Notes: generated by a model not told the origin, from the sequence alone. Positions 3,718 to 23,781 are shown, numbered from the stretch's first letter. The stretch: DNA of 64,000 nt from Verrucomicrobiota bacterium (GCA_012517065.1 JAAYVR010000133.1:258-64257); one strand, 5' to 3'. Numbers and translations are program-made.

Positions 3718-3942
3718 CCGGAAATCTCGCGGGAATCAAGTCTTTGCGTGTCTTGAGCCGGTCAGGCGGTGAGGTTTCCGGGCTGATAACGAAAAAATTT
3801 TCAACTAAATCGTAAGAATTGGGCATCAAATCGCGAATACATAATATGAGAGCAGTGCTTTTGTCCGCAACGGCTTTGGGGACAAGCCCGCAGCGGCTGG
3901 CAGTCGGCTAATGGCCGGCTGCCCTGCCCACAAGCGAAACGG

Positions 3943-3975
3943 AGGACCGGCGCGGTCGTCGGCGGCGCCGGTCCT
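3943..3975 (-). terminator. Strong GC hairpin downstream of the 4028-6811 gene (possibly bidirectional)
   Basis: Perfect 11-bp stem AGGACCGGCGC (3943-3953) / GCGCCGGTCCT (3965-3975) with an 11-nt loop, ~50 nt after the stop of the minus-strand gene. On the minus strand it is followed by CCGTTTCGCTT, a weak U-tract. Confidence 0.45.
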
Positions 3976-4027
3976 GCCATTTCGAGGCAGGCCCGGGAAT
4001 CTCACCGGTTCATCGACACAGACTAAA

Positions 4028-6811
4028 CTACGTGCCTGACACCGGTTGCTCGCTCAGCACTGTTCCGATCTGCAACGGCCCAAGTTCAAAGGTAACAGTC
4101 TCGCCTTCGGTTCCCAAATACCCGCCCCAGCCGACGCGGATGTCCCGGACACGTTTCAAATCCAAAACGCCGTCGCCGGGTTTTGACCATCCCGCACGCT
4201 GGAACTGGTAGATAGGGACGATCGAGCGTTGGTTGCCGGAAGAACCGAGTGACCGGCCGGTGTTTGCGATGTAATCTTCGCCACCGTCCTCACCAAGAAT
4301 AACAAGCAATTGCGTGGGCGTTTTCTGACCCTCCGGCACCCGTGAATCAATGACCAAGCAATCAGCCGCGGACAGATCGTGCATGTTAGTCTGCTGCAGG
4401 TTGACGAACAGAAAAGTATCAACGTTGCTCTTCTGTATCTTGCCAGTCGCTTGAAAAGCAAGGAGTTCGCCGGGCGCTCCAACAACGTCGGGCTTCAGAC
4501 CAGCGGACACGAATTCGCCCTTGATCAGGCTGGCAGTCCCCGGAGGCAGCGGACGCAGCAAGAGGTTGGGGATTTGACCGGACTTGGCCGGTAGCCGGCG
4601 AGGCACACGCGCCGAGCTGAATCTTGCAAATGCGGCTCCGTATGGTTCGAGTTTCAACGCAAAACCGGCGGCCTTGACCCCCGCGGTTTTGCCTCCGGTT
4701 GCAGGGTCCAAAAGTTCGCCCGTGCCCTCTGCTGAGACACTGACTTCGCCTGACCACGGCCGTGGGCTGTCGTTGATGATGAACCACACGTGGCTGTCAT
4801 TCACGTGCCGGTGAGTGACGCGAATCGGCGATGAACCGGGCACAACTCGAATGTCCGGTTCCAGAAGCCCGTTCAAGACCAGGGGCAAGAGACTCTCAGA
4901 ACCAACCGGCAGGAATACGCCTCCGCCGCCTGCGGGGTTTGCTGTGACGCTTTGTTGTTCTCCCGGATCGCCAAACAGCTCACGGGCCATGCGTTGGACC
5001 GCAGCCGATGGAAACTCGTTTTCGCTGTTGGCCGGCAAATCCCCAAGCGCGACCACCACCCCGCCCATGCGCACAAAACGGCCAAGTTTGTCCCACGCTG
5101 CCATCGGGAGTGTGTCCACGCCCGGCAGTATCACCACGTTCCAGCGCAATTTGCCGTGGACGAGACAATCCTGTTCGATTTGTGCTTCGGCCAGAGCGCG
5201 CGAATCAACCACAGCGAAATCTCGCTGGTGAACAAAAAGGCTTTCAATAGTCGCCCGGTAAATGCTCTCGATTCGACTGGCCCGGGGCGCCTCGTTTGCC
5301 CAGTGCCGAGCAGGAGTGAACTTTGTCCACAAGCTTTCGGCCGGGTAAAGCACTGCGATCTGCGCGACCTGATGTCCGCCGCGCAGGGTTCCACAACATC
5401 GCCCAACCCAGTCGTTGATGCGCTGTAATTGGTCGTCTGTGAGGTCGGTGAAGCTGTAATAGCTGGTGATGCAATTCACACCGGCAACGATCTGCCGATT
5501 GCACGTGCCGCGAATCTCGCTTTCGTTGACGATTCGTTTTGGGCGAGAATCGCCAGGGGATCGCCAAACCTGGCCGTGATCCGAAGTTTCGCTCATCACG
5601 AGGTCGCGTCCTTCCAGTTCGGCTGCGCTGGCCACCAGCCGCGCGATGAACCACGGCACTTCACCGGGCAGGCTGGTCAGGCAATCGATGCTCGGTGCGT
5701 CCAGCCTTCGTACGCATCTGAAGAAGTCGCCGTACAACGGCACGTGTGCAACAATGCTTTCTTCCATGAGCAGGTGGCCCCCGGACGGGATGTTGTGTTG
5801 CCGGCACCACGTCTGGATTTGGCCGAAGAAATTCTCCGAAATCAGCTCGCCAACAGTGAGCCAGAAATCATAACGGTGCTTTTGTGTCAAAGGACCGGCA
5901 TCGACGAACAAGGCCGGAATCACGGTGATGTCCAGCGCGTATCCACGCCGTTTCTGGAACTCGATCGGCAAGTTCGGCGCCCACGGCAACGGGCGGTACG
6001 GCATTGGCTTCAGAAAGCAGCTCATCAGTGAAGGTTCGTCAGTGAACGTCGCCATGAACCATCGGCCAAGGTCCGAGCCCAGTTTGTCAGCGTACCGCTG
6101 GTGTGTGACCTGAACGAATCGCGTGGTGGGTTCGGGCATGAGCAGGTTGATGTACGGCATTTTCTGCCAGAGGTTTCCGTCGGCGTGCGTCCCTTCATAC
6201 AGCCGGTCCTCGGTTACGACCATTGCCAGCCACCGGCCCTGAGGGGCCTGCCATTGGAGTCGGCCGTCCCTGATTTGCGCGGACAAATCTTTTTGCGTTT
6301 CAGGGTCGATCCGCCCGTCACGAACCTGGAAACCCGCGGCCAGGAGCACCTTTCCTGGCGGAACTGCGAAATCAACCATGCCGGTTTCAGTCTCATGGTG
6401 CATTTCGAGAAGGCCGCGGGCTTCCCACTCGGGATGGTCGCGCAAGACAAGACCGCCTGCGTTGCCTGAAGGGTAGCCGCGCTCGTCGTACAGCCAGAGC
6501 GCCAATCCGGATTCCCTTGCGCGTTTCACAGCGCGCACGAAAGCCTGCCATTTGGGTTCGCTTTCGAGGTATTGGTCGAAAGACACGTTGCAAACAACGC
6601 CGCCGAAACCCTGTTGCTGGAGGCGGGCGATGAGCTGGTCCTGCGCCTCGTGGCTGTCAGGCCAACTGTGAATGATTTTCAAAATCCGGGTTTCAGATGC
6701 TGGATTGGCGAAATCGAATGCCTCGCCGGTTTGGGGATGCGCTCCGGGCAAAAGCCAAACGAGCGCGGACCACACCGCCAAGTGTACAATGAGCTTTTTC
6801 ACGGCCGACAC
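4028..6811 (-). CDS. Large secreted protein, putative glycoside hydrolase (family not assignable by eye)
   Basis: 927-aa ORF with a GTG start at 6811 and an N-terminal signal-like segment VKKLIVHLAVWSALVWLLPGAHPQ. The region GFGGVVCNV...LALWLYDERGYPSGNAGG resembles TIM-barrel glycosidases commonly annotated simply as glycosyl hydrolase in Bacteroidota and PVC genomes. Coding is well supported by length; the product call is tentative. Confidence 0.75.
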   Translation of the reverse strand: MSAVKKLIVHLAVWSALVWLLPGAHPQTGEAFDFANPASETRILKIIHSWPDSHEAQDQLIARLQQQGFGGVVCNVSFDQYLESEPKWQAFVRAVKRARESGLALWLYDERGYPSGNAGGLVLRDHPEWEARGLLEMHHETETGMVDFAVPPGKVLLAAGFQVRDGRIDPETQKDLSAQIRDGRLQWQAPQGRWLAMVVTEDRLYEGTHADGNLWQKMPYINLLMPEPTTRFVQVTHQRYADKLGSDLGRWFMATFTDEPSLMSCFLKPMPYRPLPWAPNLPIEFQKRRGYALDITVIPALFVDAGPLTQKHRYDFWLTVGELISENFFGQIQTWCRQHNIPSGGHLLMEESIVAHVPLYGDFFRCVRRLDAPSIDCLTSLPGEVPWFIARLVASAAELEGRDLVMSETSDHGQVWRSPGDSRPKRIVNESEIRGTCNRQIVAGVNCITSYYSFTDLTDDQLQRINDWVGRCCGTLRGGHQVAQIAVLYPAESLWTKFTPARHWANEAPRASRIESIYRATIESLFVHQRDFAVVDSRALAEAQIEQDCLVHGKLRWNVVILPGVDTLPMAAWDKLGRFVRMGGVVVALGDLPANSENEFPSAAVQRMARELFGDPGEQQSVTANPAGGGGVFLPVGSESLLPLVLNGLLEPDIRVVPGSSPIRVTHRHVNDSHVWFIINDSPRPWSGEVSVSAEGTGELLDPATGGKTAGVKAAGFALKLEPYGAAFARFSSARVPRRLPAKSGQIPNLLLRPLPPGTASLIKGEFVSAGLKPDVVGAPGELLAFQATGKIQKSNVDTFLFVNLQQTNMHDLSAADCLVIDSRVPEGQKTPTQLLVILGEDGGEDYIANTGRSLGSSGNQRSIVPIYQFQRAGWSKPGDGVLDLKRVRDIRVGWGGYLGTEGETVTFELGPLQIGTVLSEQPVSGT

Positions 6812-11749: not shown

Positions 11750-12664
11750 ATGTACGCCCTTTCATCCTGTTGGAACTCGAGCCGGCACATCGACGGACGC
11801 GCGATGTTGCGCGAGATTCGGGATTTGGGTTTTGAATATGCCGAGCTGAGCCACGGCATCCGGCTGAGTCTTGTCCCGGGCATCCTTGATGCCGTGGACG
11901 CAGGTGAAATCAAGATTTGCAGTCTGCACAATTTCTGTCCGCTTCCAATTGGGGTGACACATGCCTCGCCCAATGTGTTCAAGTTCACGGCGCTGGACCC
12001 TCGCGAACGCGAAAGCGCCCTCAGACACACGCTGAAAACCCTCGAGTTTGCCGAGCGGGTTCACGCACCGCTGGTCGTGCTCCACCTTGGCGAGGTGGAA
12101 ATGAAAGAATACACCGACACCCTGATTGAAATGACCGAAGAAGGTCAGCGTGACACGCCGAAATACCAGCGTTTGTGCGCAGAGGTGGATGAAAGGCGCG
12201 AATTGCGAAAGACGCAGCACATCATGTTGGCGTATGACATGCTGCGTCGGATTGCCGAACAGGCTGCAGCCCGGAATATCAAGCTCGGCATCGAAAACCG
12301 GGAGGCGATCGAGGAAATCCCGTTCGAGGGCGATTTTCCGTTCTTCTTCAGGGAGTTTGACACAGAGGTGGTCCGTTACTGGCACGACACCGGGCACGCG
12401 CAAATCAAGGAGAACCTCGGTTTCATTTCACACACGATACATCTTGAGTCGCTGGCCGGGTTTGTTGCCGGTTTTCACGTGCATGACGTCGAGTTCCCTG
12501 CTCATGACCATCGTCCGCCAGGGCAGGGGACAATCGATTTCGCGGCTTTGAAGCCGTATGTGAAACCCGAGCATCCGAAAGTGCTTGAATTGCATCCCAA
12601 TTTGCCATCCGAGGCTGTGCTCGCCGGCCTCGCCCATATCAAATCGATCTGGGGCGAGTCTTAA
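11750..12664 (+). CDS. Sugar phosphate isomerase/epimerase (xylose isomerase-like TIM barrel)
   Basis: The track ORF is 11720..12664. I move the start to the ATG at 11750 (MYALSSCWNS...) because 11709-11746 is a terminator hairpin plus T-run. The family pattern is LGFEYAELSHG, VVLHLG, KLGIENRE, HDTGHA and HVHD. Confidence 0.8.
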   Translation: MYALSSCWNSSRHIDGRAMLREIRDLGFEYAELSHGIRLSLVPGILDAVDAGEIKICSLHNFCPLPIGVTHASPNVFKFTALDPRERESALRHTLKTLEFAERVHAPLVVLHLGEVEMKEYTDTLIEMTEEGQRDTPKYQRLCAEVDERRELRKTQHIMLAYDMLRRIAEQAAARNIKLGIENREAIEEIPFEGDFPFFFREFDTEVVRYWHDTGHAQIKENLGFISHTIHLESLAGFVAGFHVHDVEFPAHDHRPPGQGTIDFAALKPYVKPEHPKVLELHPNLPSEAVLAGLAHIKSIWGES

Positions 12665-12679
12665 GCTCAGGGTGTTAAA

Positions 12680-13789
12680 GTGGCCAAAGCTCGCTCCAAA
12701 ATCCCGAACCTTATTCTTCGAGTTGCGATCTGCGTCATTCTGCTTGGATGGGTTTTCCATCAGATTTTCGTCGGCGAAGGGCGGCTTGCATGGGAACGGG
12801 AAGGAGGGGCATGGGATTCTCTGAGCCGAGAGGCCCAATGGCGAATTGCATGGACTCGCGGGCCCGAGGAGCTGTGGCAAGTGTTGGCCCAGGTTCGACC
12901 TGATGCGGCGTTGGTATCGCTTGTTTTCATGGGGGTAACAATTCTGATTGGGGCGCTGCGGTGGCGCATGGTGATGCGCGTTCAGGGGCTGGACCTGTCG
13001 TTTGGGCGGGCGGCTGAGATTTCGCTTGTGGCGCATTTTTTCAATTCGTTTCTGCTGGGCTCGACAGGCGGAGACCTGATGAAGGCTTATTACGCTGCGC
13101 GCGAGACGCATCATTTGAAAACGGAAGCCGTGGCTACGGTGTTCATCGACCGTTTTCTTGGGCTGCTTTCGATGCTTGCGTTTGCATCGCTGATGATGCT
13201 GCCGAACCTGAGTCTGATGGTCAGCCACCGGCGACTGAGCGCTTTGGCCGGCGTGACACTGGCGATGTTGATTGGCGGGCTGCTGGTGGGTGGGGTTGCT
13301 TTTCTTGGCGGGGTGTCGAGGACGTGGCCGCGGGCGCGTGACTGGCTCAGGAAACTGCCCAAGGGCGAGGTGATCGAGCGATCCTTGGAAGCGTGTCGGC
13401 GGTTTGGTCGTGACCGGCGAACGCTGGTCAAGGCAACCGGGCTGTCGATGCTGTTGAATCTTGCGTGTGTATTGCAGATATGGTCGTTGGCTGGTGGTCT
13501 TGGTCTCCAAGTAAATGTGATTGGTTTGTGTGTGATTGTGCCGGTGGTGATAACCATCTCGGCCGTGCCGGTGACACCGAGCGGACTTGGGGTGCGTGAG
13601 AATCTTTATGTTTGGCTTCTGGCGGTTCCGGAGTTGGGGGTTGAAGCGAAACAGGCGCTGTCGCTCTCACTGCTGGCGTATGCTGGCAGTCTCTTTTGGA
13701 GTTTGCTGGGGGGGCTGGTATATGTCACTTTCAGAGAACGGCACCATTTGAGCGAGTTGGTTGCCGAGAATTCAAACCTTGGCGACTGA
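12680..13789 (+). CDS. Flippase-like / lysylphosphatidylglycerol-synthase transmembrane-domain protein (UPF0104 family)
   Basis: 369-aa polytopic membrane ORF with a GTG start. GALRWRMVMRVQGLDLSFGRAAEISLVAHFFNSFLLGSTGGDLMKAYY is the typical family core. Confidence 0.75.
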   Translation: MAKARSKIPNLILRVAICVILLGWVFHQIFVGEGRLAWEREGGAWDSLSREAQWRIAWTRGPEELWQVLAQVRPDAALVSLVFMGVTILIGALRWRMVMRVQGLDLSFGRAAEISLVAHFFNSFLLGSTGGDLMKAYYAARETHHLKTEAVATVFIDRFLGLLSMLAFASLMMLPNLSLMVSHRRLSALAGVTLAMLIGGLLVGGVAFLGGVSRTWPRARDWLRKLPKGEVIERSLEACRRFGRDRRTLVKATGLSMLLNLACVLQIWSLAGGLGLQVNVIGLCVIVPVVITISAVPVTPSGLGVRENLYVWLLAVPELGVEAKQALSLSLLAYAGSLFWSLLGGLVYVTFRERHHLSELVAENSNLGD

Positions 13790-13895: not shown

Positions 13896-15281
13896 ATGAA
13901 ACGCACGCCAACATCGGAGCTTTACACACTGGCCAAAGCGGTGGTTGAAAAACTGCAGAACGCCGGTTTTGAGGCTTACCTTGTCGGCGGATGCGTGCGG
14001 GACATGATCCTGGAACGAGAGGCTGGGGATTACGACGTGGCAACGTCGGCCCAACCACACCAGGTGGAAGCCTTGTTCGACCGGACCATACCTGTGGGGC
14101 GGCAATTTGGCATTCTTGTCGTGGTGTTCGGAGGCGCGCAGTTCCAGGTCGCCACTTTCCGAACCGAATCGGATTACAAGGACGGTCGGCGGCCTGACCG
14201 AATCGCTTTTTCGGACGCGCGAGCGGACGCGATGCGCCGCGATTTCACGATCAACGGGCTTTTCTACGATCCGGTGCGGGAACAATTGCACGATTGGGTT
14301 GGCGGCCAGGCTGATCTGACGGCCCGGCTTGTCAGGACAATAGGAAATCCAACCGAGCGATTTGGTGAGGATCATCTGCGGCTGTTGCGCGCCGTGCGTT
14401 TTGCCGTTGAATTGGATTTCGAGATTGAGGATCGAACGCTCGATGCCATTCGTCTTTTGGCGCCGCAAATCAACAGAATCAGCGCCGAACGCATTCGGGC
14501 CGAGCTCCTCAAGATTTTCCGTCCTCCACACGCCGCGCGCGGACTTGTTTTGTTGGAAAGCACGGGGCTGTTGCGGGAAGTCTTGCCCGAAATCGCTGCT
14601 TTCACGTCGTGCGAACAAACGCCGGCTTATCATCCTGAAGGGACTGTTTTCGAGCACGTCCGCCGCATGCTATCGATGCTGTCTCCGGACTCGCCTGAAT
14701 CTCTCGCGTGGGCCGTTTTGTTGCACGACGTCGGAAAACCGCGCGTGGCATCCAAAGACGAAGTCACCGGTGAAATACACTGTTACGAGCACGACAAGGT
14801 CGGCGCCGAGATGGCGGAGGCGATTCTGACCCGGCTGCGTTTTCCGAGAAACCAGATCGAGGAGATCGTTACCGCGGTGCGATACCACATGCAGTTCAAG
14901 CACGCGCGGGAGATGCGCAAGTCAACCATCAGAAGAATCATGGCAAGACCCACTTTCAGGCTCGAATTGGAACTGCATCGGCTTGACTGCCTTGGCTCTC
15001 ACGCTGAACTGGACTGCTACGACTTTTTTGTTCAACAAGCCGAAGCGCTGGCCAACGAACCTGTTCTTCCTCCGCCAATTGTTTCTGGGCACGACCTGAT
15101 CAAACTCGGGATGAAACCCGGGCCGGCAATGGGCGCGCTGTTGGCGGAAATCAGGGAACGCCAGTTGGAAGGGGGGTTTAAGGACCGCGCCCATGCACTT
15201 GCATGGGCAGCGGCGAAGGTCTCACAATCAACAGCGTCAATCGATTCTGGCGCCACGGATTCTGGTCTGGAAAACCGGTGA
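13896..15281 (+). CDS. cca: CCA-adding tRNA nucleotidyltransferase with HD domain
   Basis: 461-aa ORF. It has the PolyA-polymerase head-domain motif YLVGGCVRDMILEREAGDYDVATSA, RDFTINGLFYD, and a C-terminal HD region (LLHDVGKP). Confidence 0.9.
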   Translation: MKRTPTSELYTLAKAVVEKLQNAGFEAYLVGGCVRDMILEREAGDYDVATSAQPHQVEALFDRTIPVGRQFGILVVVFGGAQFQVATFRTESDYKDGRRPDRIAFSDARADAMRRDFTINGLFYDPVREQLHDWVGGQADLTARLVRTIGNPTERFGEDHLRLLRAVRFAVELDFEIEDRTLDAIRLLAPQINRISAERIRAELLKIFRPPHAARGLVLLESTGLLREVLPEIAAFTSCEQTPAYHPEGTVFEHVRRMLSMLSPDSPESLAWAVLLHDVGKPRVASKDEVTGEIHCYEHDKVGAEMAEAILTRLRFPRNQIEEIVTAVRYHMQFKHAREMRKSTIRRIMARPTFRLELELHRLDCLGSHAELDCYDFFVQQAEALANEPVLPPPIVSGHDLIKLGMKPGPAMGALLAEIRERQLEGGFKDRAHALAWAAAKVSQSTASIDSGATDSGLENR

Positions 15282-15628: not shown

Positions 15629-16522
15629 TCAATTCCGATCCTGCGTCTGCGTTCCACTTTGAGGTTGACGCGAGCCGGTTTCGGGAGGCTCAGGTTTGGG
15701 GAAATCGGATGCGCTCTTGATCCGGACTCCTCCGCTGACGGAAATCGTTCCGTCTTCATTGGCGCGGAGTTTGGGCCGGGTTTGGGTGTACTGGTGTGTT
15801 TGTTGGGCCAGCAAGTTCCCGTCCGGGTTGACTTGCACATAAGTGAATGTGCGCGCCCCGGTTTGAAACAGGACGTGCAGATTAGCGTTGCGGTCCAACT
15901 GAGCCTCTGGATGACTGAACGCCAACATCGGGCCGATCGAAATGAGCTTATATACTCTCGTTTCACCCCGATTACTGACCCGGACGTACAGTCTGCTTTG
16001 ATTCTGGTTGAGCGACTGGATGAGAGCGTACTTTCGGACTTCGAGTCCGCTGGGTTGTGTTCCCTCTTTTGGTGGAACGCCAAAATCCTGCTCCCAGATT
16101 TTGGCGCCGGATGTCACCAATACCTGCTTCGACTTGCTGGTCAGTTCGAGGCCAAGCTCTGGAATCCGGACTATGGCCGTGACCTGATAACCGCCGGGCC
16201 TGCCCACGTTGAAATACGGCTCCAAATCGAGCCATCTGGTGCCCCTTGCAGACGAAGGAACCTCGAATGGCTCAACCACCGGCAATTCGCCAAGTTTTTC
16301 AACCACAAACCCTTTTTCCCCTTCCACCGTTACCTGAAGCCAGTCCGGGTCAGCCCCCAGTTTCAACGTTTGCCCGGAGAAATTGGTCACTCGAACGCCT
16401 ACCAGCATTGATTCGCCTGCGAGGTATTGGTCGCGCTCTAGCACGACCTCCACCGTCACCTGTGCGGCGGCGTGAAATGCAATCAAAAAAAAGGCCAGAA
16501 CCCTTGCCAACCGGTGTCTCAT
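15629..16522 (-). CDS. Secreted protein of unknown function
   Basis: The track ORF is 15629..16573. I prefer the ATG at 16522, which gives a signal peptide MRHRLARVLAFFLIAFHAAAQ. The sequence looks beta-rich, with no recognisable catalytic motif. Confidence 0.65.
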   Translation of the reverse strand: MRHRLARVLAFFLIAFHAAAQVTVEVVLERDQYLAGESMLVGVRVTNFSGQTLKLGADPDWLQVTVEGEKGFVVEKLGELPVVEPFEVPSSARGTRWLDLEPYFNVGRPGGYQVTAIVRIPELGLELTSKSKQVLVTSGAKIWEQDFGVPPKEGTQPSGLEVRKYALIQSLNQNQSRLYVRVSNRGETRVYKLISIGPMLAFSHPEAQLDRNANLHVLFQTGARTFTYVQVNPDGNLLAQQTHQYTQTRPKLRANEDGTISVSGGVRIKSASDFPKPEPPETGSRQPQSGTQTQDRN

Positions 16523-16616
16523 TGCGTTCAATCTACGACTCTGTGCTTTGATGGCAAGCTGCAAATCCGCCATCTGAGGTCAAGGACAGCGCACCCGCAT
16601 TCTGGGTTGTCAACTT

Positions 16617-18083
16617 GTGAAGAAGATGTTAACAACCTCGGAGAGCATGCAAGCAACAGCGCCAACCGCAGTGTCTGAGCTGCGCGATTCGTTCGTGGTC
16701 TTCCGGAACAGCCAGGGCAACGAAGCGCGCGGCACGTTACTTCGCCTGACGCGTTATGTCGCGGTGTTCGAAGTCTATAATCCGTACAGCATCGTTCAGT
16801 TGTCTGAGGTTCTGAACGACTGTCGAATTTTCATGGCGGACCGGCTGGTGTACTCGGGCCGGGCCATTGTCAGCAGCCTTGTCAATACCGGTATAATGCT
16901 GATTTGTGAGGCGGAGCTCGACGAATCGTGGCTTGAGGTCGATCTTTTTGCGCCTTTGACGGAGCCGGGCAGGTTGCGGAGCGAGTTCGCCGAGTTTTTG
17001 AAGGAATGGAACAGGGTCGGGCAAATACTGCCCGAATACAAGGTGGCTGTGGCGGACCTTCAGACATATTTTGTTGATTTGCGGCGCTGGCTGGAACAGG
17101 TCGAATTGAGCATCCGTTCTTCGCCCACGGGCGAACGCGGCTTGATGGAAAGGGATGTGATCGACAATTTGCGCGATGACGTGTTGCCTTCGATAGACCG
17201 GCTGTTCAAACGCTTCGAGGACGTGGCGGACGTGGTGCATCCGGACCTGCAGCCTTTGCATCGAACCTACGTGAAACGGCAACTGCACCCGTTGGTTCTC
17301 TGTGCACCGTTCGCCTACAGAACATACCTCAAACCTCTCGGATACGCCGGGGACTATGAGATGGTCAACATGATCCTGCGCGACCCGCACGAAGGCAGCT
17401 CCCTTTTTGCAAAAATGTTGAATGTTTGGCTCCTTGCCCAGCCTTCCGCCGAAGCACACAGAAACAGGGTGAAATACCTCGCAAACATGCTTGACACGGA
17501 GGTGGGCAGGATCGCCGCTACTGGACGAAAAGCCAAGATTCTGAATCTCGGCTGCGGCCCGGCCGGGGAAATTCAGTCTTTCCTGACCCATTCGGCCGTG
17601 GCCGACCACGCAGAGTTCTCGCTTCTTGATTTCAACGACGAAACTCTCGATTACGCTAGGAAAGTGCTGGAGTCGCTCAGGCAGCGGCATCACCGCGGCA
17701 CAGTCCTGAATTTTGAAAAGCGGTCCGTGCACCAGATTCTGAAGGATTCCTCACGAAGAGTGGAACTCCCCCCGGACCGGCAGTATGACCTGATCTACTG
17801 CGCCGGGCTTTTCGACTATCTATCTGACCGGGTATGCAAACGTCTGATGGACCACTTTTATGATTTGCTCGGGCCGGGCGGCCTGCTGGTGGCGACCAAC
17901 GTTGATTCGTCAAACCCGAACAGAAACAGCATGGATTTCATTCTTGAATGGCACCTCACATACAGGGACAAAATGGAGATGGCAAGACTTGCACCTGGCG
18001 CTGCACCCACTGAGCATTGCCTTGTGAAGGCCGACCCAACTCAAGTCAACATTTTCCTTGAAGTGCGCAAGCCATATGCCTGA
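16617..18083 (+). CDS. Class I SAM-dependent methyltransferase with N-terminal PilZ-like barrel; PhcB-like by architecture and context
   Basis: 488-aa ORF (GTG at 16617 or ATG at 16626). The methyltransferase motifs are motif I ILNLGCGPAGEI, motif II YDLIYCAGLFDYLSD and motif III LLGPGGLLVATN. Its stop overlaps the start of the downstream kinase (ATGCCTGA, 18076-18083). Confidence 0.8.
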   Translation: MKKMLTTSESMQATAPTAVSELRDSFVVFRNSQGNEARGTLLRLTRYVAVFEVYNPYSIVQLSEVLNDCRIFMADRLVYSGRAIVSSLVNTGIMLICEAELDESWLEVDLFAPLTEPGRLRSEFAEFLKEWNRVGQILPEYKVAVADLQTYFVDLRRWLEQVELSIRSSPTGERGLMERDVIDNLRDDVLPSIDRLFKRFEDVADVVHPDLQPLHRTYVKRQLHPLVLCAPFAYRTYLKPLGYAGDYEMVNMILRDPHEGSSLFAKMLNVWLLAQPSAEAHRNRVKYLANMLDTEVGRIAATGRKAKILNLGCGPAGEIQSFLTHSAVADHAEFSLLDFNDETLDYARKVLESLRQRHHRGTVLNFEKRSVHQILKDSSRRVELPPDRQYDLIYCAGLFDYLSDRVCKRLMDHFYDLLGPGGLLVATNVDSSNPNRNSMDFILEWHLTYRDKMEMARLAPGAAPTEHCLVKADPTQVNIFLEVRKPYA

Positions 18084-20802
18084 TCCCGGAACAGTACAAC
18101 CAACGTCCCTTGACAGAGACGCGGATTTTCAGCGTGCTTTTGCTGAAAACGAGCGCGAGGTCAGGATGCAGACAGGCCAGCTTGCGTGCCTGCTCGTGGT
18201 GGTCCTGATGCCCGCTGGTGTGTTGCTGGACACAATGCTGTACCCGGAGTTTCTTGGGCGATTCTTTCTTTACCGGGTGGCGTCTGTTGTACTTGTTTCA
18301 GTCATCTGGTTCCTGCACAAGACCGAGTTTGGCAGGAAACACTATCGGTTCATCCAGTTGTTCATTGTTTATATTCCGTGTTTGTTCATGACCATGATGA
18401 TCTGGGACAGCCACAGGCCGGATTCTCCATACTATGCCGGGCTGAACCTGGTTTTGCTGGCCATCAGCGCGGTTGGTCACTGGCCTCTGTTGGAAACGGT
18501 GTTGTCGGTGGCCGGCGTGATCATGATGTACCTGTTGTTTGCGCTTGCTCGTGTTCTGTTTACAGGGGTCAGTGAACCGGGCGTCACGTTTGGCAGCAAC
18601 GTTTACTTCCTTGTTGTAACGGGCATCATCGTCACCGCCGGCAACATCATGTACAATCGACTGGCGTTCCGGGAGTTCACGTTGCGATTCGAACTTGACC
18701 GCAACCGCAAGAGACTTGCCGACGCGCTCACCGAGCTTGAGAAAACCAATGAACGCCTTGTCGAACTTGACCGCGTCAAGAACAGGTTCTTCGCCAACAT
18801 CAGCCATGAACTTAGAACGCCGCTGACATTGCTGCTGTCGCCCTTGGAGACGCTGTTGCACGGGCCACAGCGCTCGGTGAACGACACCCAGGTGCGGGAA
18901 TGGCTCAACACAATGTACGTGAACGGCTTGCGCCTTCTCAAGCTCATCAACGACTTGCTCGAACTGGTCCGGCTGGAAGCCGGAAAGGTCGATGTAGTGC
19001 GTGAACCGATTGATTTGGAAGGATTCCTGCGTGGTTTGACATCGGAGGTGAAACAGCTTTCACAAGACAAAAGGGTTCGGCTTTTCACACTGGTAAGTCC
19101 CGACCTCGGTCCCGTTATGGCTGACCGGGGCAAACTCGAGAAGATCGTATTGAACCTCCTGTTCAACGCAATCAAGTTTACCCCTGCGGGAGGCCGCGTC
19201 GAAATCAGCGCAAGACGCGATGGCGATCAGGTTTTGCTGAGCGTCAGCGACACCGGGGTGGGCATTCCACGTGACAAGCAGCAGTTCATTTTCAGCAGGT
19301 TCTGGCAGGCTGACTCTTCGTCGAGCAGGAAATACCAGGGCGCAGGCATTGGATTGGCGCTTGTCAAAGAGCTTGTTGAAGCGCAGGGCGGAAGTGTCAG
19401 CTTCGAGAGCGAGGTGGGTATTGGCACCACGTTCTACGTCAGACTGCCGTTCCTTCGGGCTGAAGGCATTGCAGCAGAACTGCCCAGAACACCGGGCGCA
19501 GAGGAAACGGCCAAAGAGGAGAAAGCCGGAGCGCCCCAGCAGGATGCAACCGCAAAGTGGCTGGCCGACCTGTATCGGCGCGCTGAACTGTTTCCGTCCA
19601 TACCGTCAGTGCGTGAGAGTGTCCGGCCTTCCGAGATACCTGCGACGGGACCGCAGCCAAAGGTGCTGATAGCGGACGACGAGCCGGACATGCTGCGGTT
19701 CTTGCGGTCTCAGTTGATAGGCGAGTATGTGGTGCTGGAAGCGAGCGACGGTGAACAGGCGATTTCCAAGGCCGTTCAGTTCTTGCCTGACGTCGTTCTT
19801 TGTGACATGATGATGCCCGAGAAGGATGGATTGCAAGTGTGCCGCGAACTAAGACAGAACGTTGTTACGCAGAGCATACCGATCCTTGTGCTTACAGCCA
19901 GGGCTGACGAGGAAACCAAACTTGCGGTTCTCGCCGCCGGTGCGAGTGATTTTCTTGCAAAGCCGTTCTCGACCAGCGAAGTCAATGTGCGCGTGCGCAA
20001 CCTCATTCGCGGTTACAGGTTCCAGCGCGAGGTGGCGCGCCAGAACAAAGTGCTCGAACAGACCATCCAGCAGTTGAAAGACACTGAAACACAGTTGGTC
20101 GCCTCCGAAAAAATGGCGTCGCTCGGCCGCCTCAGCGCCGGCATCATGCACGAGATGAACAACCCCCTGAATTACATCAAGACAGGGTTGTATGTTCTCA
20201 GATCAAAAGAAAAGGCACTGCCCGAACACGAGCGGGCAGAATTCGCAGAGACTCTTCGCGATATCGAAGAAGGAATTGGCCGTGTGCAAGCAATCGTGAG
20301 CGAGTTGCGCAGGTTCGCTCATCCGCACGCCGGTAAAGAAGAGACCATCGATGTCGAGTCCCTCGTCACGTCAGCTCTGCGCTTTGTCAGCCACGAACTC
20401 AAGAATTCAGCGAAGGTCAGGCTCGAGCTTCTGCCGGGTCATGTGATTGCGGGGAACCGGAACAAACTTCTCCAGGTGCTGATCAACCTGCTTCACAATT
20501 CAGTTTATGCAATTCAGAAAAAGGGTTATAGTAACGGCGAGGGCGAGATTGAAATCGCCAGCAAGGTGTCTGACAACGTCGATCGAATTGTTGTCCGTGA
20601 CAACGGAACTGGCATCGAGCCGGAACATTTGAACAAGATATTCGAACCGTTTTTCACCACAAAAGATGTAGGAGAAGGAATGGGCCTAGGATTGAGCATT
20701 TGTTACCGCATTCTGGAAGAACACGGCGGGCGAATCGTTGTCAGGAGCGAGCCGGGTCAGTTTGCCGAGTTCACTTTGGAATTGCCCCGCAAGCAAGTTT
20801 GA
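18076..20802 (+). CDS. Membrane-bound hybrid sensor kinase with HK-REC-HK architecture
   Basis: The N-terminus has multiple hydrophobic helices. The first H-box is FFANISHELRTPLT, followed by HATPase motifs (NAIKFTP, DTGVGI, GAGIGLALV). The receiver is KVLIADDEPDM...VVLCDMMMPEKDG...LAKPF. A second H-box, MASLGRLSAGIMHEMNNPLNYI, is followed by a second HATPase (LLHNSVYAI, DNGTGI, GMGLGLSI). Confidence 0.9.
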   Translation: MPDPGTVQPTSLDRDADFQRAFAENEREVRMQTGQLACLLVVVLMPAGVLLDTMLYPEFLGRFFLYRVASVVLVSVIWFLHKTEFGRKHYRFIQLFIVYIPCLFMTMMIWDSHRPDSPYYAGLNLVLLAISAVGHWPLLETVLSVAGVIMMYLLFALARVLFTGVSEPGVTFGSNVYFLVVTGIIVTAGNIMYNRLAFREFTLRFELDRNRKRLADALTELEKTNERLVELDRVKNRFFANISHELRTPLTLLLSPLETLLHGPQRSVNDTQVREWLNTMYVNGLRLLKLINDLLELVRLEAGKVDVVREPIDLEGFLRGLTSEVKQLSQDKRVRLFTLVSPDLGPVMADRGKLEKIVLNLLFNAIKFTPAGGRVEISARRDGDQVLLSVSDTGVGIPRDKQQFIFSRFWQADSSSSRKYQGAGIGLALVKELVEAQGGSVSFESEVGIGTTFYVRLPFLRAEGIAAELPRTPGAEETAKEEKAGAPQQDATAKWLADLYRRAELFPSIPSVRESVRPSEIPATGPQPKVLIADDEPDMLRFLRSQLIGEYVVLEASDGEQAISKAVQFLPDVVLCDMMMPEKDGLQVCRELRQNVVTQSIPILVLTARADEETKLAVLAAGASDFLAKPFSTSEVNVRVRNLIRGYRFQREVARQNKVLEQTIQQLKDTETQLVASEKMASLGRLSAGIMHEMNNPLNYIKTGLYVLRSKEKALPEHERAEFAETLRDIEEGIGRVQAIVSELRRFAHPHAGKEETIDVESLVTSALRFVSHELKNSAKVRLELLPGHVIAGNRNKLLQVLINLLHNSVYAIQKKGYSNGEGEIEIASKVSDNVDRIVVRDNGTGIEPEHLNKIFEPFFTTKDVGEGMGLGLSICYRILEEHGGRIVVRSEPGQFAEFTLELPRKQV

Positions 20803-20832
20803 AGAACATCTCACCCCCAAACCAAGAACAGC

Positions 20833-22098
20833 ATGGAGACATTGTACGATTACAAGCGGTTTGCGATTCTCTACGTGGATGACGAAGAGAAATCGCTTAG
20901 GTACTTTGTGCGCGCATTTGGCGACCAGTTCAGGATACTCACCGCCACGAACGCCGCCGAGGGATTTGCCATCCTCCAGCAGCACAAGGATGACATAGGT
21001 CTCCTGATGACCGACCAACGTATGCCGGGTGAAAAAGGCGTTCAACTTCTTGAAAAGGCACGCCAGCTCAACCCCAGGATAATACGCGTTCTCGCAACCG
21101 CTTATTCCGACCTTGACGCCGCTATCCAGGCCGTCAACACCGGCGCCATCTACAAGTACGTAACCAAGCCATGGGAAATCCCTCAACTTGAAGCCACGCT
21201 GCGCCGCGGACTCGAGTTCTTCATGGTCCAACGCGAGCGCGACATCCTGTTGCGCGAAAAGCTGACGGTGCTTCACAAGCTTATTATAACTGATCGCCTC
21301 CTTGGGCTGGGAATCATTGCGGCCGGGTTGGGCAGCCGCCTCCGGAATGCCCTTTCAGCCGTTGAGAACTTCATCCGGATCGCCCCGCCTCCGACAAACA
21401 GCGGTGGCCCTTCTCTGGACGAGTTCCGCGACCCGACTTTTTGGAAGAGCTTGTACGACCACGTCCAAGAGCAGGTCCGCCGCATCGGTGAAATGCTGAA
21501 ATTGTTGAGCATGACCGAACCCGGGCGGGCGCCTCAATTTGATCACGAGGTCAACCTTTCCGGACTTGTCGCCACGGTGCTCGAGCGGTTCGCCACAAGA
21601 ATCCAGACCCAGAACATCGCTGTGGAGCACACGACAGCGCAGGATACCCCGAATCTCATGGTGGACATCCAGACATTCGATCGGCTTTTCGATTTGCTGT
21701 TCGAGGATGAGCTGCACCATCTCCCGCCCGGAAGCCGCATATGGCTCAACATTCGCAGAGCGCCAGCCAACGACATTGTCGCTCCAGGTGTCGAAATCGA
21801 AATGTCCGACAACGGCCCCGGTTTGTCTGAGGAGGCCCTGCGTTCTGTGTTCGACCCGCTGGTGTTGCGCGAAAGCGGTAATCTGGATTACGGCCTTAAC
21901 TTGATGGCGGCTTATCTGGTCGTTTATCACCACAACGGGCGAATTGAAGTCGGCCCGCGGCGAGAGGGTGGGACGGTCTTCCGGATTTTCTTGCCCGCCA
22001 ACCCGACCCTCAAAACAGACGCAATGCGCGAGCAGGAATTCCTGAACCGTGTCCTCCTCAACGACACACTTTGGGAACACTTGCTCACCACAGGGTAA
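20833..22098 (+). CDS. Response regulator with C-terminal histidine-kinase-like output domain lacking the phospho-acceptor His (PhcR/PhcQ-like)
   Basis: The receiver is FAILYVDDEEKSL...LLMTDQRMPGEKG...YKYVTKPW. It is followed by a degenerate H-box, IIAAGLGSRLRNALSAV, with Ser/Arg where His is expected. A HATPase-like end follows (MSDNGPGL, YGLNLMAAYLVVYHHNGRIEV). Confidence 0.85.
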   Translation: METLYDYKRFAILYVDDEEKSLRYFVRAFGDQFRILTATNAAEGFAILQQHKDDIGLLMTDQRMPGEKGVQLLEKARQLNPRIIRVLATAYSDLDAAIQAVNTGAIYKYVTKPWEIPQLEATLRRGLEFFMVQRERDILLREKLTVLHKLIITDRLLGLGIIAAGLGSRLRNALSAVENFIRIAPPPTNSGGPSLDEFRDPTFWKSLYDHVQEQVRRIGEMLKLLSMTEPGRAPQFDHEVNLSGLVATVLERFATRIQTQNIAVEHTTAQDTPNLMVDIQTFDRLFDLLFEDELHHLPPGSRIWLNIRRAPANDIVAPGVEIEMSDNGPGLSEEALRSVFDPLVLRESGNLDYGLNLMAAYLVVYHHNGRIEVGPRREGGTVFRIFLPANPTLKTDAMREQEFLNRVLLNDTLWEHLLTTG

Positions 22099-22125: not shown

Positions 22126-23781
22126 GTGGATGACAGTTCTACCCGGGTGATTCGGCCGGAGCCGCACAGCGATGTGGAGGCCGTCCCCTGTGTGTTGTTT
22201 GAAGACGACCACATTCTGGTCGTCAACAAACCGCCGGGATGGAACACTCATGCCCCTTCGCCATACGCCGGCGAGGGGATTTACGACTGGCTTCGGAATC
22301 GCGCCCCGCGTTGGTCGAATCTCTCGATTATCCACCGCTTGGACAAGGAAACTTCGGGAATATTGATTTTTGGGAAAACCCGCCTCGCAAATTGCTCGCT
22401 GACCGCCCAGTTCGAAAAAAGGACGGTGTTGAAGAAATACCTGTTTCTAAGCGACAGACCCGGCCCCCAATCATCCTTGCTTGTTCGCACTGCCATTGTC
22501 CGTGAAGGCGCGCGATTCGTTTGCAGACCCGTCGGCGACAGAACGCAGGTGGCCGAAACTCGATTCCGAAGCCTTGGCAGTGTTGGGCGCTTCAGCCTTG
22601 TACAAGCCGAACCGCTAACCGGCAAAACACACCAGGTCCGAGTTCACGCCGCCCATGCCGGCTTTCCCGTTCTCGGTGACAAGCTGTACGGCGGCGGTAG
22701 GGCACCACGAGTATGCCTACATGCAACGAGTCTGACACTCCACCACCCGGAAACAGGCGCAAGACTGTGTTTCAAATCCGAGCCAGATTGGGACACCGAG
22801 CCCGCTTTGGCGCTCAGAACGGCGATGATCGATCCGAATCAAACAAACGCATTTCGTGTCATCCACGGCGCTTCCGACAATTACCCCGGATGGTTCGTAG
22901 ATAAGCTCGGTGCTTTTCTGTTCTCGCAAAAGGAATTGCCACTGTCACAAACCGAACGACACAAACTCGAAGCCCTCTCAACACAGTTCAAATGCCGTGG
23001 CGTCTATCATCAGCAGCTCTTGAAGCATACACAATCGCCCGACAGATCCTCCGTTTCTGCTGCGGTTGTTGCCGGCCACGGCGCCGAAAACAGGGAGACC
23101 CACATCAGGGAAAACAGCGTCTCTTATCTTTTGAGATTTGGGACAGGCTGCTCGGTCGGCCTGTTCCTCGATCAGCGCGACAACCGGCGCCGGATTCTTA
23201 GAAATCACGTGACGGCCGACTTTCCAGTGTTCGAACGGCCGCCTGCCGAAATGAACGTGCTCAATTTGTTTGCTTACACTTGCGCATTCTCGGTCTGCGC
23301 CGCATTGACCGGAGCTCACACCGTAAGTGTTGACCTGTCAAGGAAGCACCTCGAATGGGGACAGACCAATTTCAGACTAAACGGGCTGGATGCCCGTCAA
23401 CACGAGTTCATGGTCGGCGACGCGTTTGATTGGTTGCGCCGCCTGAGGCGCAAACAGCGCAAATTCGACTTGGTTCTTATTGATCCGCCGACCTTTTCGA
23501 CATCCAAAACGAGCGGCGTCTTCAGGGTCGAACGCGATTTCGGCAGGTTGGTCCTCGAGACGATTCCTCTCATCGCTGATGGCGGCGTCCTGTTTGCCTC
23601 CTGCAATGCGGTTGGGTATGAACCACAACGTTTTGTTCAGGACGTGCTCGGCACAATAAGGCAAAGCCAGGCTGAATGCCTCAAGACCCACTACGCGCCA
23701 CAGCCTCCTGACTTCCCAACAACGAGCGCACAACCGGCCCATCTAAAGTCGCTCTGGGTGCGCATTGGCAGATCGACGTGA
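22126..23781 (+). CDS. Fusion protein: RluA-family pseudouridine synthase + RlmI/RlmK-like class I SAM-dependent RNA methyltransferase
   Basis: 551-aa ORF with a GTG start. The N-terminal half has ILVVNKPPGWNTH and IIHRLDKETSGILIFGKT, which includes the catalytic Asp motif. The C-terminal half has VLNLFAYTCAFSVCAAL...VSVDLS...FDLVLIDPPTFSTSK, the typical RlmI-type methyltransferase core. Confidence 0.85.
   Translation: MDDSSTRVIRPEPHSDVEAVPCVLFEDDHILVVNKPPGWNTHAPSPYAGEGIYDWLRNRAPRWSNLSIIHRLDKETSGILIFGKTRLANCSLTAQFEKRTVLKKYLFLSDRPGPQSSLLVRTAIVREGARFVCRPVGDRTQVAETRFRSLGSVGRFSLVQAEPLTGKTHQVRVHAAHAGFPVLGDKLYGGGRAPRVCLHATSLTLHHPETGARLCFKSEPDWDTEPALALRTAMIDPNQTNAFRVIHGASDNYPGWFVDKLGAFLFSQKELPLSQTERHKLEALSTQFKCRGVYHQQLLKHTQSPDRSSVSAAVVAGHGAENRETHIRENSVSYLLRFGTGCSVGLFLDQRDNRRRILRNHVTADFPVFERPPAEMNVLNLFAYTCAFSVCAALTGAHTVSVDLSRKHLEWGQTNFRLNGLDARQHEFMVGDAFDWLRRLRRKQRKFDLVLIDPPTFSTSKTSGVFRVERDFGRLVLETIPLIADGGVLFASCNAVGYEPQRFVQDVLGTIRQSQAECLKTHYAPQPPDFPTTSAQPAHLKSLWVRIGRST

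Follow-up and report, generated by a model that had tools for sequence, protein, structure and literature searches.

A three-gene cassette resembling phcB-phcS-phcR/Q in a Verrucomicrobiota bacterium: a candidate methyl-ester signalling module

The subject of this work is a cassette of three genes, here termed g1, g2 and g3, at positions 16617-22098 of a 64,000-nt stretch of DNA from a Verrucomicrobiota bacterium (GCA_012517065.1, JAAYVR010000133.1:258-64257); the whole of that stretch is referred to as the window. The reading we favour, as probable though well short of secure, is that the cassette is a synthase-receptor module of the Phc type, homologous to phcB-phcS-phcR/Q of Ralstonia and Cupriavidus and serving a hydrophobic methyl-ester signal. 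An open reading frame (ORF) listing of the window gives three co-directional genes on the + strand, encoding in order a methyltransferase, a membrane kinase and a receiver protein. Throughout the Verrucomicrobiota loci compared these genes make up an unvarying unit, which is also present at two Planctomycetota loci, and this arrangement is far beyond chance. A preliminary description, made from the sequence of the window, had likened the cassette to phcB-phcS-phcR; the comparisons below retain the core of that proposal and revise several of its parts.

The conserved unit and its PhcB-family methyltransferase

The gene g1 (16617-18083, + strand) encodes a PhcB-family S-adenosylmethionine (SAM)-dependent methyltransferase, of 488 aa when read from its GTG codon, with a true start that may lie a few codons downstream; g2 (18076-20802, + strand) encodes a hybrid sensor kinase of 908 aa from the ATG at 18076; and g3 (20833-22098, + strand) encodes a protein of 421 aa that combines a PhcQ-like receiver with a predicted pseudokinase output. 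The junctions were read directly. The first two genes overlap by 8 nt (18076-18083, + strand), and the overlap, ATGCCTGA, holds both the ATG of g2 and the TGA stop of g1 (18081-18083), an arrangement consistent with translational coupling. The stop of g2 at 20802 and the ATG of g3 at 20833 leave a gap of 30 nt, so that the co-orientation, overlap and gap first described for the cassette are all borne out. The base composition of the cassette is about that of the rest of the window, and simple promoter and terminator scans of the cassette gave results at the level of shuffled sequence, which are uninformative. The window has the plain three-gene long form of the cassette, with no polyketide synthase (PKS), cytochrome P450 (P450) or FadL gene attached.

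When 13-kb stretches from 27 relatives were compared for gene order, the genes for the methyltransferase, the transmembrane (TM) kinase and the protein with receiver (REC) and kinase-like parts were contiguous on one strand in every one of them, and the full cassette was likewise present at all 64 named-genome loci with enough downstream DNA, most of them from Verrucomicrobiota. Within the order to which the window belongs, the methyltransferase is present in 41 of 61 related genomes; in all 41 a PhcS-type TM domain is encoded directly downstream of it, once per genome, and an ortholog of g3 comes next after the kinase wherever the contig continues. The linkage of methyltransferase to kinase and regulator, on which the preliminary description had staked its proposal, was thus found throughout. 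A one-genome-per-species scan gave at least 591 genomes with a relative, of which the best 80 are nearly all Verrucomicrobiota metagenome-assembled genomes (Limisphaerales, Prosthecobacter, Brevifollis, Chthoniobacterales, Methylacidiphilales and strain DG1235). The three-gene cassette is also present at two Planctomycetota loci; with relatives in Verrucomicrobiota and at these two loci, the placing of the system outside the Proteobacteria stands. At one of the two, of Tepidisphaeraceae type (L123), an AI-2E_transport family membrane protein (3834-5810) is encoded 1.2 kb upstream of the methyltransferase, and at the other (L124) an extra gene (12234-13376) for a hybrid of histidine kinase (HK) and REC domains follows the cassette.

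The description of g1 as a SAM-dependent methyltransferase agrees with Pfam, which finds class I SAM-methyltransferase domains (Methyltransf_12/23/25/31) at aa 294-440 and nothing in the first 290 residues. Neither Pfam nor NCBIfam has a dedicated model for g1, which matches only generic methyltransferase domains, those of NCBIfam far below their cutoffs; NCBIfam has no specific model for g2 or g3 either, and a sequence search of the PDB with g1 gave nothing meaningful. The reference proteins for the Phc comparison were those of the Cupriavidus phcBSRQ locus; the locus has the canonical phcB-phcS-phcR-phcQ layout, with products of 463, 443, 381 and 332 aa. Cupriavidus is a fair yardstick: its Phc system is recognised as complete, with proteins 56-75% identical to those of R. 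solanacearum GMI1000, and a form of 3-OH PAME, the methyl ester of 3-hydroxypalmitic acid, is apparently produced by one of its strains (PMC2842291).

Against Cupriavidus PhcB, g1 is 41% identical over 461 aa (BLASTP, E 3e-119), a match that runs the full length of the protein, including its N-terminal barrel. An alignment of 59 sequences, comprising Verrucomicrobia-type proteins and Burkholderiales PhcB, has 62 invariant columns, distributed over all three parts of the protein (barrel, helical domain and Rossmann core). A word-indexed search gave more than 5,000 relatives of g1, and when 1.84 billion cluster representatives were searched exhaustively with HMMER, 688 clusters scored at E<=1e-30. 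Automated annotation by the Joint Genome Institute (JGI) already gives the PhcB product name to close homologs, and many of them carry it, as 'extracellular factor (EF) 3-hydroxypalmitic acid methyl ester biosynthesis protein'. In a FastTree phylogeny of 138 members, g1 falls in a clade with 98% support made up almost wholly of sequences from genomes labelled Verrucomicrobiota, and the Burkholderiales PhcB clade (99%) lies across a weakly supported deep split from it, on a side of the tree that also includes Planctomycetota clusters. Given the identity to PhcB, the shared invariant motifs and the JGI names, clustering with unrelated methyltransferase families, raised at the outset as an outcome that would count against the proposal, is not what was found, and g1 is assigned as a full-length PhcB-family methyltransferase. 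It is single-copy in its own genome, as is the sensor of g2. Among the 77 distinct long cassettes used for all catalytic-residue counts and for the co-variation analysis, residues G314, D338 and D400 are kept in 77 and G312 in 75.

A search of plasmids by tblastn located a phc-like operon on the Paraburkholderia graminis plasmid NZ_CP024936.1, with genes for a methyltransferase, a kinase and two receiver proteins; this methyltransferase matches g1 at 41% identity across 94% of its length, the N-terminal region included, and served as the query that led to the Cupriavidus locus. At this locus (L001, 4925-11355) the kinase has 445 aa and the receiver proteins have 134 and 344 aa, the plasmid is typed as conjugative, and a gene of the cyclopropane-fatty-acyl-phospholipid synthase family lies about 1 kb upstream of the operon.

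An AlphaFold2 (AF2) model of g1, with a predicted local distance difference test (pLDDT) score of 88.7, has three parts. The N-terminal beta-barrel (aa 26-101; 16692-16919, + strand) has a PilZ-like fold and contains the invariant motifs FRNSQG and EVYNPYSIxQxSEVL; the middle domain (aa 119-300; 16971-17516, + strand), delimited from the secondary structure of the model, is helical and contains the invariant KPLGYAGDYEMVN and HRNR motifs; and the methyltransferase core (aa 306-484; 17532-18068, + strand) has a Rossmann fold, with GCGPAxE as motif I, the acidic D338 and the motif YCAGLFDYLSD. A Foldseek search of the PDB gave as nearest solved folds small-molecule and PKS methyltransferases (3ocj, SgvM, SibL, DnrK, CurJ and AprA MT2). 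Residues 160-455, that is the helical domain and core, also match, at 27.7% identity, a region annotated as type I PKS on two plasmids of Enterobacter ludwigii (NZ_CP134637.1 and NZ_CP134634.1), so this catalytic module is also found in the form of a PKS domain.

The barrel had been described as PilZ-like, and this holds at the level of fold and not of sequence. Modelled in isolation (pLDDT 85), it superposes on PilZ domains, which provide all of its top Foldseek matches (PP4397, MrkH, YcgR, VCA0042, BcsA and Alg44; query TM-score, TMq, 0.59-0.67, E about 0.01-0.1). It differs from the PilZ domains of YcgR, MrkH, BcsA and Alg44 in having invariant motifs of its own, which are common to PhcB. 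Pfam PilZ (PF07238) is matched at E<=1 by none of 36 barrels (g1 and 35 related proteins), and the RxxxR and D/NxSxxG motifs for cyclic di-GMP (c-di-GMP) were not seen on inspection of g1 aa 20-105. Canonical c-di-GMP binding by the barrel is consequently unsupported, and the barrel is probably a regulatory or partner-binding module. In a distant member of the family (P0390) the equivalent barrel just reaches the Pfam PilZ threshold, at 24.1 bits. Among five longer PhcB-like members (P0383, P0373, P0357, P0372 and P0313) an extra, canonical PilZ domain is found at the N terminus, scoring up to 82.7 bits, and one has a receiver domain before the family's own barrel. From these additional domains, the PhcB-like family appears to place regulatory inputs in front of the enzyme, which hints that signal synthesis is gated by c-di-GMP or by phosphorylation in some lineages.

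The membrane receptor and the terminal receiver protein

The product of g2, described at first simply as a membrane sensor kinase, is indeed a kinase with predicted TM helices, but has more parts than that term implies, being a TM-HK-REC-HK fusion. Pfam finds two HisKA, two HATPase_c and one Response_reg domain, in the order HK, REC, HK after the N-terminal hydrophobic helices. The PhcS-type membrane sensor domain (18076-18720, + strand) has six predicted TM helices, counted by reading the sequence, with short loops and no large periplasmic domain; such a TM-only sensor would fit a lipophilic ligand that is met within the membrane. It is followed by the first transmitter, HK1 (18778-19452, + strand; Pfam HisKA and HATPase_c), with the classical H-box SHELRTPL, by the internal receiver (19663-19995, + strand; Pfam Response_reg), and by the second transmitter, HK2 (20065-20796, + strand), which has a PhcS-like kinase core and the H-box HEMNNPL. 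The His of HK1, the His of HK2 and the Asp of the internal receiver are each kept in 77 of 77 long cassettes. In the numbering of a 914-aa ORF, REC spans aa 536-646 and the HisKA/HATPase unit that comes after it aa 670-913; this is the layout of a Rec-controlled kinase of LvrB type, a receiver directly N-terminal to a core of dimerisation and histidine phosphotransfer (DHp) and catalytic (CA) domains with an intact His.

The relation to PhcS extends over both ends of the protein. By BLASTP, g2 aa 637-907 (HK2) are 38.7% identical to the Cupriavidus PhcS core, aa 178-443 (E 7e-54), and g2 aa 28-463 are 28% identical to PhcS aa 16-443. Pfam has no match for the TM domain of g2, in which MASE8 was undetected even at E<=10, and for this reason a profile hidden Markov model (HMM) was built from the TM domains of the orthologs. 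Scored with a database size of Z=1e6, it gave 98.7 bits against the TM domain of Cupriavidus PhcS and 105.8 bits against the Paraburkholderia phc-like kinase; therefore the input domain of g2, besides its kinase core, is homologous to that of PhcS. Pfam MASE8 itself is weak in the Paraburkholderia kinase and matched in the kinases of the two Planctomycetota loci.

The receptor has the long TM-HK1-REC-HK2 form in 24 of the 27 relatives and at 62 of the 64 named-genome loci. Three relatives, which belong to other families, have instead a short receptor of 456-464 aa that lacks HK1; the kinase core next to its TM domain is of HK2 type, 47-48% identical to HK2 and 24-27% identical to HK1. Since PhcS is also short, and since both its core and those of the short forms are HK2-like, the HK1-REC block is tentatively read as having been inserted into a kinase of PhcS type. 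In one relative (L030; G028:C2:235834-239885) the receptor frame has only 570 aa, with all the domains of the long form present downstream, which may reflect a frameshift, a split gene or an assembly error.

In g3, Pfam finds Response_reg at aa 12-123 and HATPase_c at aa 294-390, and the C-terminal half has the make-up of a kinase, DHp plus Bergerat fold. The preliminary description took it for the counterpart of PhcR, a view that fits its REC-plus-kinase-like architecture and fits less well on closer comparison of the two halves, the receiver being nearer to PhcQ and the kinase-like half degenerate. The receiver and linker (aa 11-166) are 45.5% identical to Cupriavidus PhcQ (BLASTP, E 1e-43), and in profile comparisons the receiver scores 129 bits with PhcQ versus 103 bits with PhcR; compared end to end, g3 and Cupriavidus PhcR show 27% identity (BLASTP, E 2e-31). 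The C-terminal half scores 69.5 and 51 bits with PhcS-type cores versus 30 bits with PhcR, and has only a linker helix in common with PhcQ (17.5 bits). The conserved unit has no fourth gene, and hence no separate PhcQ, in the window or the 27 relatives.

The degenerate H-box without His, noted at the outset, is confirmed by alignment: Ser168, with its codon at 21334-21336 (+ strand), stands at the position of the phospho-acceptor His (AAGLGSRLRNAL). Of the 77 orthologs, 47 have His here, 19 have Gln, four have Ser (the window among them) and three have Asn. Five of the 77 retain the N-box Asn and three the second G2-box Gly, with the G1 box kept; Cupriavidus PhcR retains its His, N and G2 boxes. 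Because His, the N-box and the second G2 Gly are all eroded, the missing His being one symptom, the kinase-like half is predicted to be a pseudokinase throughout the family. The receiver Asp of g3 is kept in 77 of 77.

A proposed circuit and the competing explanations

The circuit that we propose would begin with g1 methylating the carboxyl group of a fatty-acid-like compound, by analogy with the Phc systems a 3-hydroxy fatty acid, to give a hydrophobic, membrane-permeant methyl ester; a methyl ester as the product is itself taken from that analogy. The ester would be bound by the membrane-embedded domain of g2 and its binding would control HK1, which would phosphorylate the internal REC. Once phosphorylated, this REC would switch on HK2, as in the Rec-controlled kinase LvrB, and HK2 would in turn phosphorylate the receiver of g3. 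The pseudokinase half of g3 would carry out no phosphorylation but would act by binding a partner, for which the interaction of PhcQ with PhcA and the anti-sigma factor LvrC are precedents.

Ralstonia strains group by signal type in PhcB and PhcS, and by phylotype in PhcR and PhcQ (PMC8578825). For the 77 cassettes, distance matrices of seven segments were compared here. Those of the cytoplasmic signalling parts vary together (r 0.5-0.8), and the methyltransferase and the TM domain track all other segments weakly. When the signalling backbone was regressed out in a partial Mantel test, the methyltransferase and TM domain gave r 0.22 (p 0.0005), and neither of two controls was significant (methyltransferase and g3 pseudokinase, 0.045; TM domain and g3 pseudokinase, 0.055). 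A residual co-variation of this kind is the pattern expected of a synthase-receptor pair, for which it is only weak evidence, because gene adjacency confounds it and partial Mantel tests run liberal.

Several observations weigh against a Phc-type signalling module. The raw distance correlation of methyltransferase and TM domain (0.395) is no higher than that of methyltransferase and HK2 (0.447), and the partial Mantel signal could itself come from physical adjacency. The methyltransferase is unusually conserved for a signal synthase, at about 55-69% across families, and the sensor domain diverges fast (mean distance 1.20 versus 0.70). Functional data on PhcB-type systems are confined to members from Burkholderiales, and an identity of 41% to PhcB would leave the substrate unfixed. 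The protein encoded by g3 is probably not orthologous to PhcR, which is catalytically intact, and the conserved unit has no LysR gene, a PhcA-type output not having been sought. The distribution is also patchy: in an even sample of the phylum the methyltransferase was present in only six of 300 other genomes. It is therefore lineage-restricted, and a 'phylum-wide' distribution was rejected; in the order of the window, by comparison, the count is 41 of 61 genomes.

Some of the same observations would suit a private cue, by which the methyltransferase modifies a membrane or envelope lipid, or reports the state of fatty acids or SAM, and the TM sensor reads this within the same cell. A circuit of that kind would control envelope or metabolic homeostasis, and the high conservation of the methyltransferase, unlike the diversifying 'dialects' of many autoinducer synthases, would be in keeping with it, as would a sensor wholly within the membrane, raw co-variation of synthase and sensor that is not special, and a conserved unit that in the 27 relatives has no exporter or outer-membrane channel. 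Against it, a methyl ester of small size would need no transporter to cross membranes; in the only studied members, those of Ralstonia and Cupriavidus, the product serves as a signal that diffuses outside the cell (PMC8578825; PMC2842291); and the partial Mantel result favours some co-variation of methyltransferase and sensor. We regard a private cue as rather unlikely. It is also conceivable, if distinctly improbable, that the circuit is as proposed and its chemistry different, the substrate being another carboxylate, or the reaction an O- or C-methylation of a polyketide-like or acyl carrier protein (ACP)-bound intermediate, so that the signal would belong to a new class. The limited identity of g1 to PhcB, the natural-product C- and O-methyltransferases among its nearest solved folds and the resemblance of its catalytic module to a PKS-embedded domain all allow for this, but the residues that are invariant in the family are common to g1 and PhcB, and no PKS, P450 or dedicated acyl-chain genes are found in the conserved unit of the window and 27 relatives; the substrate would therefore come from general metabolism, as in Ralstonia.

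The very tight coupling to a kinase gene would also be in keeping with g1 being a CheR-like enzyme that methylates the kinase or regulator, adapting the pathway with no small-molecule signal involved. Faint CheR-family matches point in this direction (g1 in NCBIfam, E 0.0099; Cupriavidus PhcB with Pfam CheR, E 0.086; one distant member, E 0.0007), but they are far below family cutoffs and cover the SAM-binding core only, the fold neighbours of g1 are small-molecule methyltransferases, and PhcB is credited with producing the methyl-ester signal in Ralstonia (PMC8578825). Because the matches are sub-threshold and in view of the fold neighbours, CheR-like protein methylation was rejected as the leading explanation, and we consider it very improbable.

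Neighbouring genes, wider significance and relation to known systems

Upstream of the cassette, 13896-15281 (+ strand) encodes a protein of the CCA-adding enzyme / poly(A) polymerase family with an HD domain (PolyA_pol, PolyA_pol_RNAbd, HD), and 15629-16573 (- strand) a divergent protein of 314 aa, which has a hydrophobic, signal-like segment at its N terminus and is matched by neither Pfam nor NCBIfam. Downstream, 22126-23781 (+ strand) is a single ORF of 551 aa, in which an RluA-family pseudouridine synthase (Pfam PseudoU_synth_2, aa 29-177) is fused to an RlmI/RlmK-like SAM methyltransferase (Methyltrans_SAM, aa 264-543). In the 27 relatives these three flanking genes recur beside the cassette in the same genus only. 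The suggestion that the divergent secreted protein belongs to the regulon of the cassette is thus not upheld: since it is linked to the cassette only within the genus, synteny gives no support for its belonging to the system.

The results suggest that lipid methyl-ester signalling may extend well beyond the few Betaproteobacteria in which it has been studied. A broader reading, which we put forward tentatively and hold to be possible rather than probable when its parts are taken together, is that Phc-type methyl-ester signalling, beyond Ralstonia and Cupriavidus, is an old communication system widespread in bacteria of the Planctomycetota-Verrucomicrobiota-Chlamydiota (PVC) group, specifically in Verrucomicrobiota and Planctomycetota. 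Its usual form there would be a fused three-step relay from a membrane sensor-HK through a Rec-controlled HK to a REC-pseudokinase, with phosphorylation switching this last component as a factor that binds proteins; and the synthase would be gated via its PilZ-derived barrel, with some lineages adding a canonical c-di-GMP-binding PilZ domain or a receiver. Literature searches found no characterised quorum-sensing system in Verrucomicrobiota and no publication on PhcB homologs in this phylum, an absence from search that is not proof; those on the distribution of homologs and on MASE8 found nothing relevant.

Verrucomicrobiota are abundant in soil and fresh water, and a conserved, single-copy module would offer a concrete and testable entry point to their signalling; cultivated genera such as Prosthecobacter carry the cassette. 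If the proposal is correct, a signal class known from a plant pathogen and its relatives would also reach another superphylum. In the long receptor, a sensor kinase is naturally fused to a Rec-controlled kinase; this receptor and the terminal REC-pseudokinase with its dispensable His are good material for studying how such relays and pseudokinases work.

In its general plan the cassette can be compared with the CqsA/CqsS system of Vibrio and the LqsA/LqsS/LqsR system of Legionella, where the gene for an autoinducer synthase adjoins that for a multi-helix membrane kinase that binds the lipophilic product in the membrane, and where, in systems of this type, there is likewise an atypical receiver protein without a DNA-binding domain. 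The CqsA and LqsA synthases are pyridoxal phosphate (PLP)-dependent acyltransferases, unrelated to g1, and the sensor domains are not known to be related.

The flow of phosphate proposed for g2 and g3 has a parallel in the Lvr phosphorelay of pathogenic Leptospira, in which LvrA is a hybrid kinase, LvrB a Rec-DHp-CA 'Rec-controlled' kinase activated by phosphorylation of its Rec domain, and LvrC a REC domain joined to a Bergerat-fold anti-sigma factor (PMC13269768). In both cases a kinase is followed by a receiver-controlled kinase and then by a receiver fused to a non-catalytic Bergerat-fold domain, partner-binding in LvrC and putatively so in g3, and LvrA is the best NCBIfam match to g2 (aa 219-911). 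The match scores 322 bits versus a cutoff of 1200, placing g2 outside the LvrA family, and here the first two steps are fused in one membrane protein. Neither a methyltransferase nor a PhcS-type sensor is reported for Lvr (PMC13269768), and the output of g3 is a predicted pseudokinase of DHp-plus-CA type that is not known to be RsbW-like.

A further comparison is with phcBSRQ of Ralstonia and Cupriavidus; PhcQ binds and stabilises PhcA (PMC13320629). The differences lie in the receptor, a long TM-HK1-REC-HK2 fusion here versus the 443-aa PhcS; in the single terminal protein that stands in place of PhcR and PhcQ, its kinase-like half degenerate, whereas PhcR of Cupriavidus has His, N and G2 boxes; and in the host phylum, Verrucomicrobiota, in which the cassette is known from genes alone and no link to PhcA is known. 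By contrast, the gene order of methyltransferase, membrane kinase and receiver protein is the same in both, and the REC-plus-kinase-like architecture of g3 is that of PhcR. The likeness extends to each of the proteins: g1 is 41% identical to PhcB, g2 and PhcS have homologous TM domains, HK2 is 39% identical to the PhcS core and the g3 receiver is 45% identical to PhcQ.

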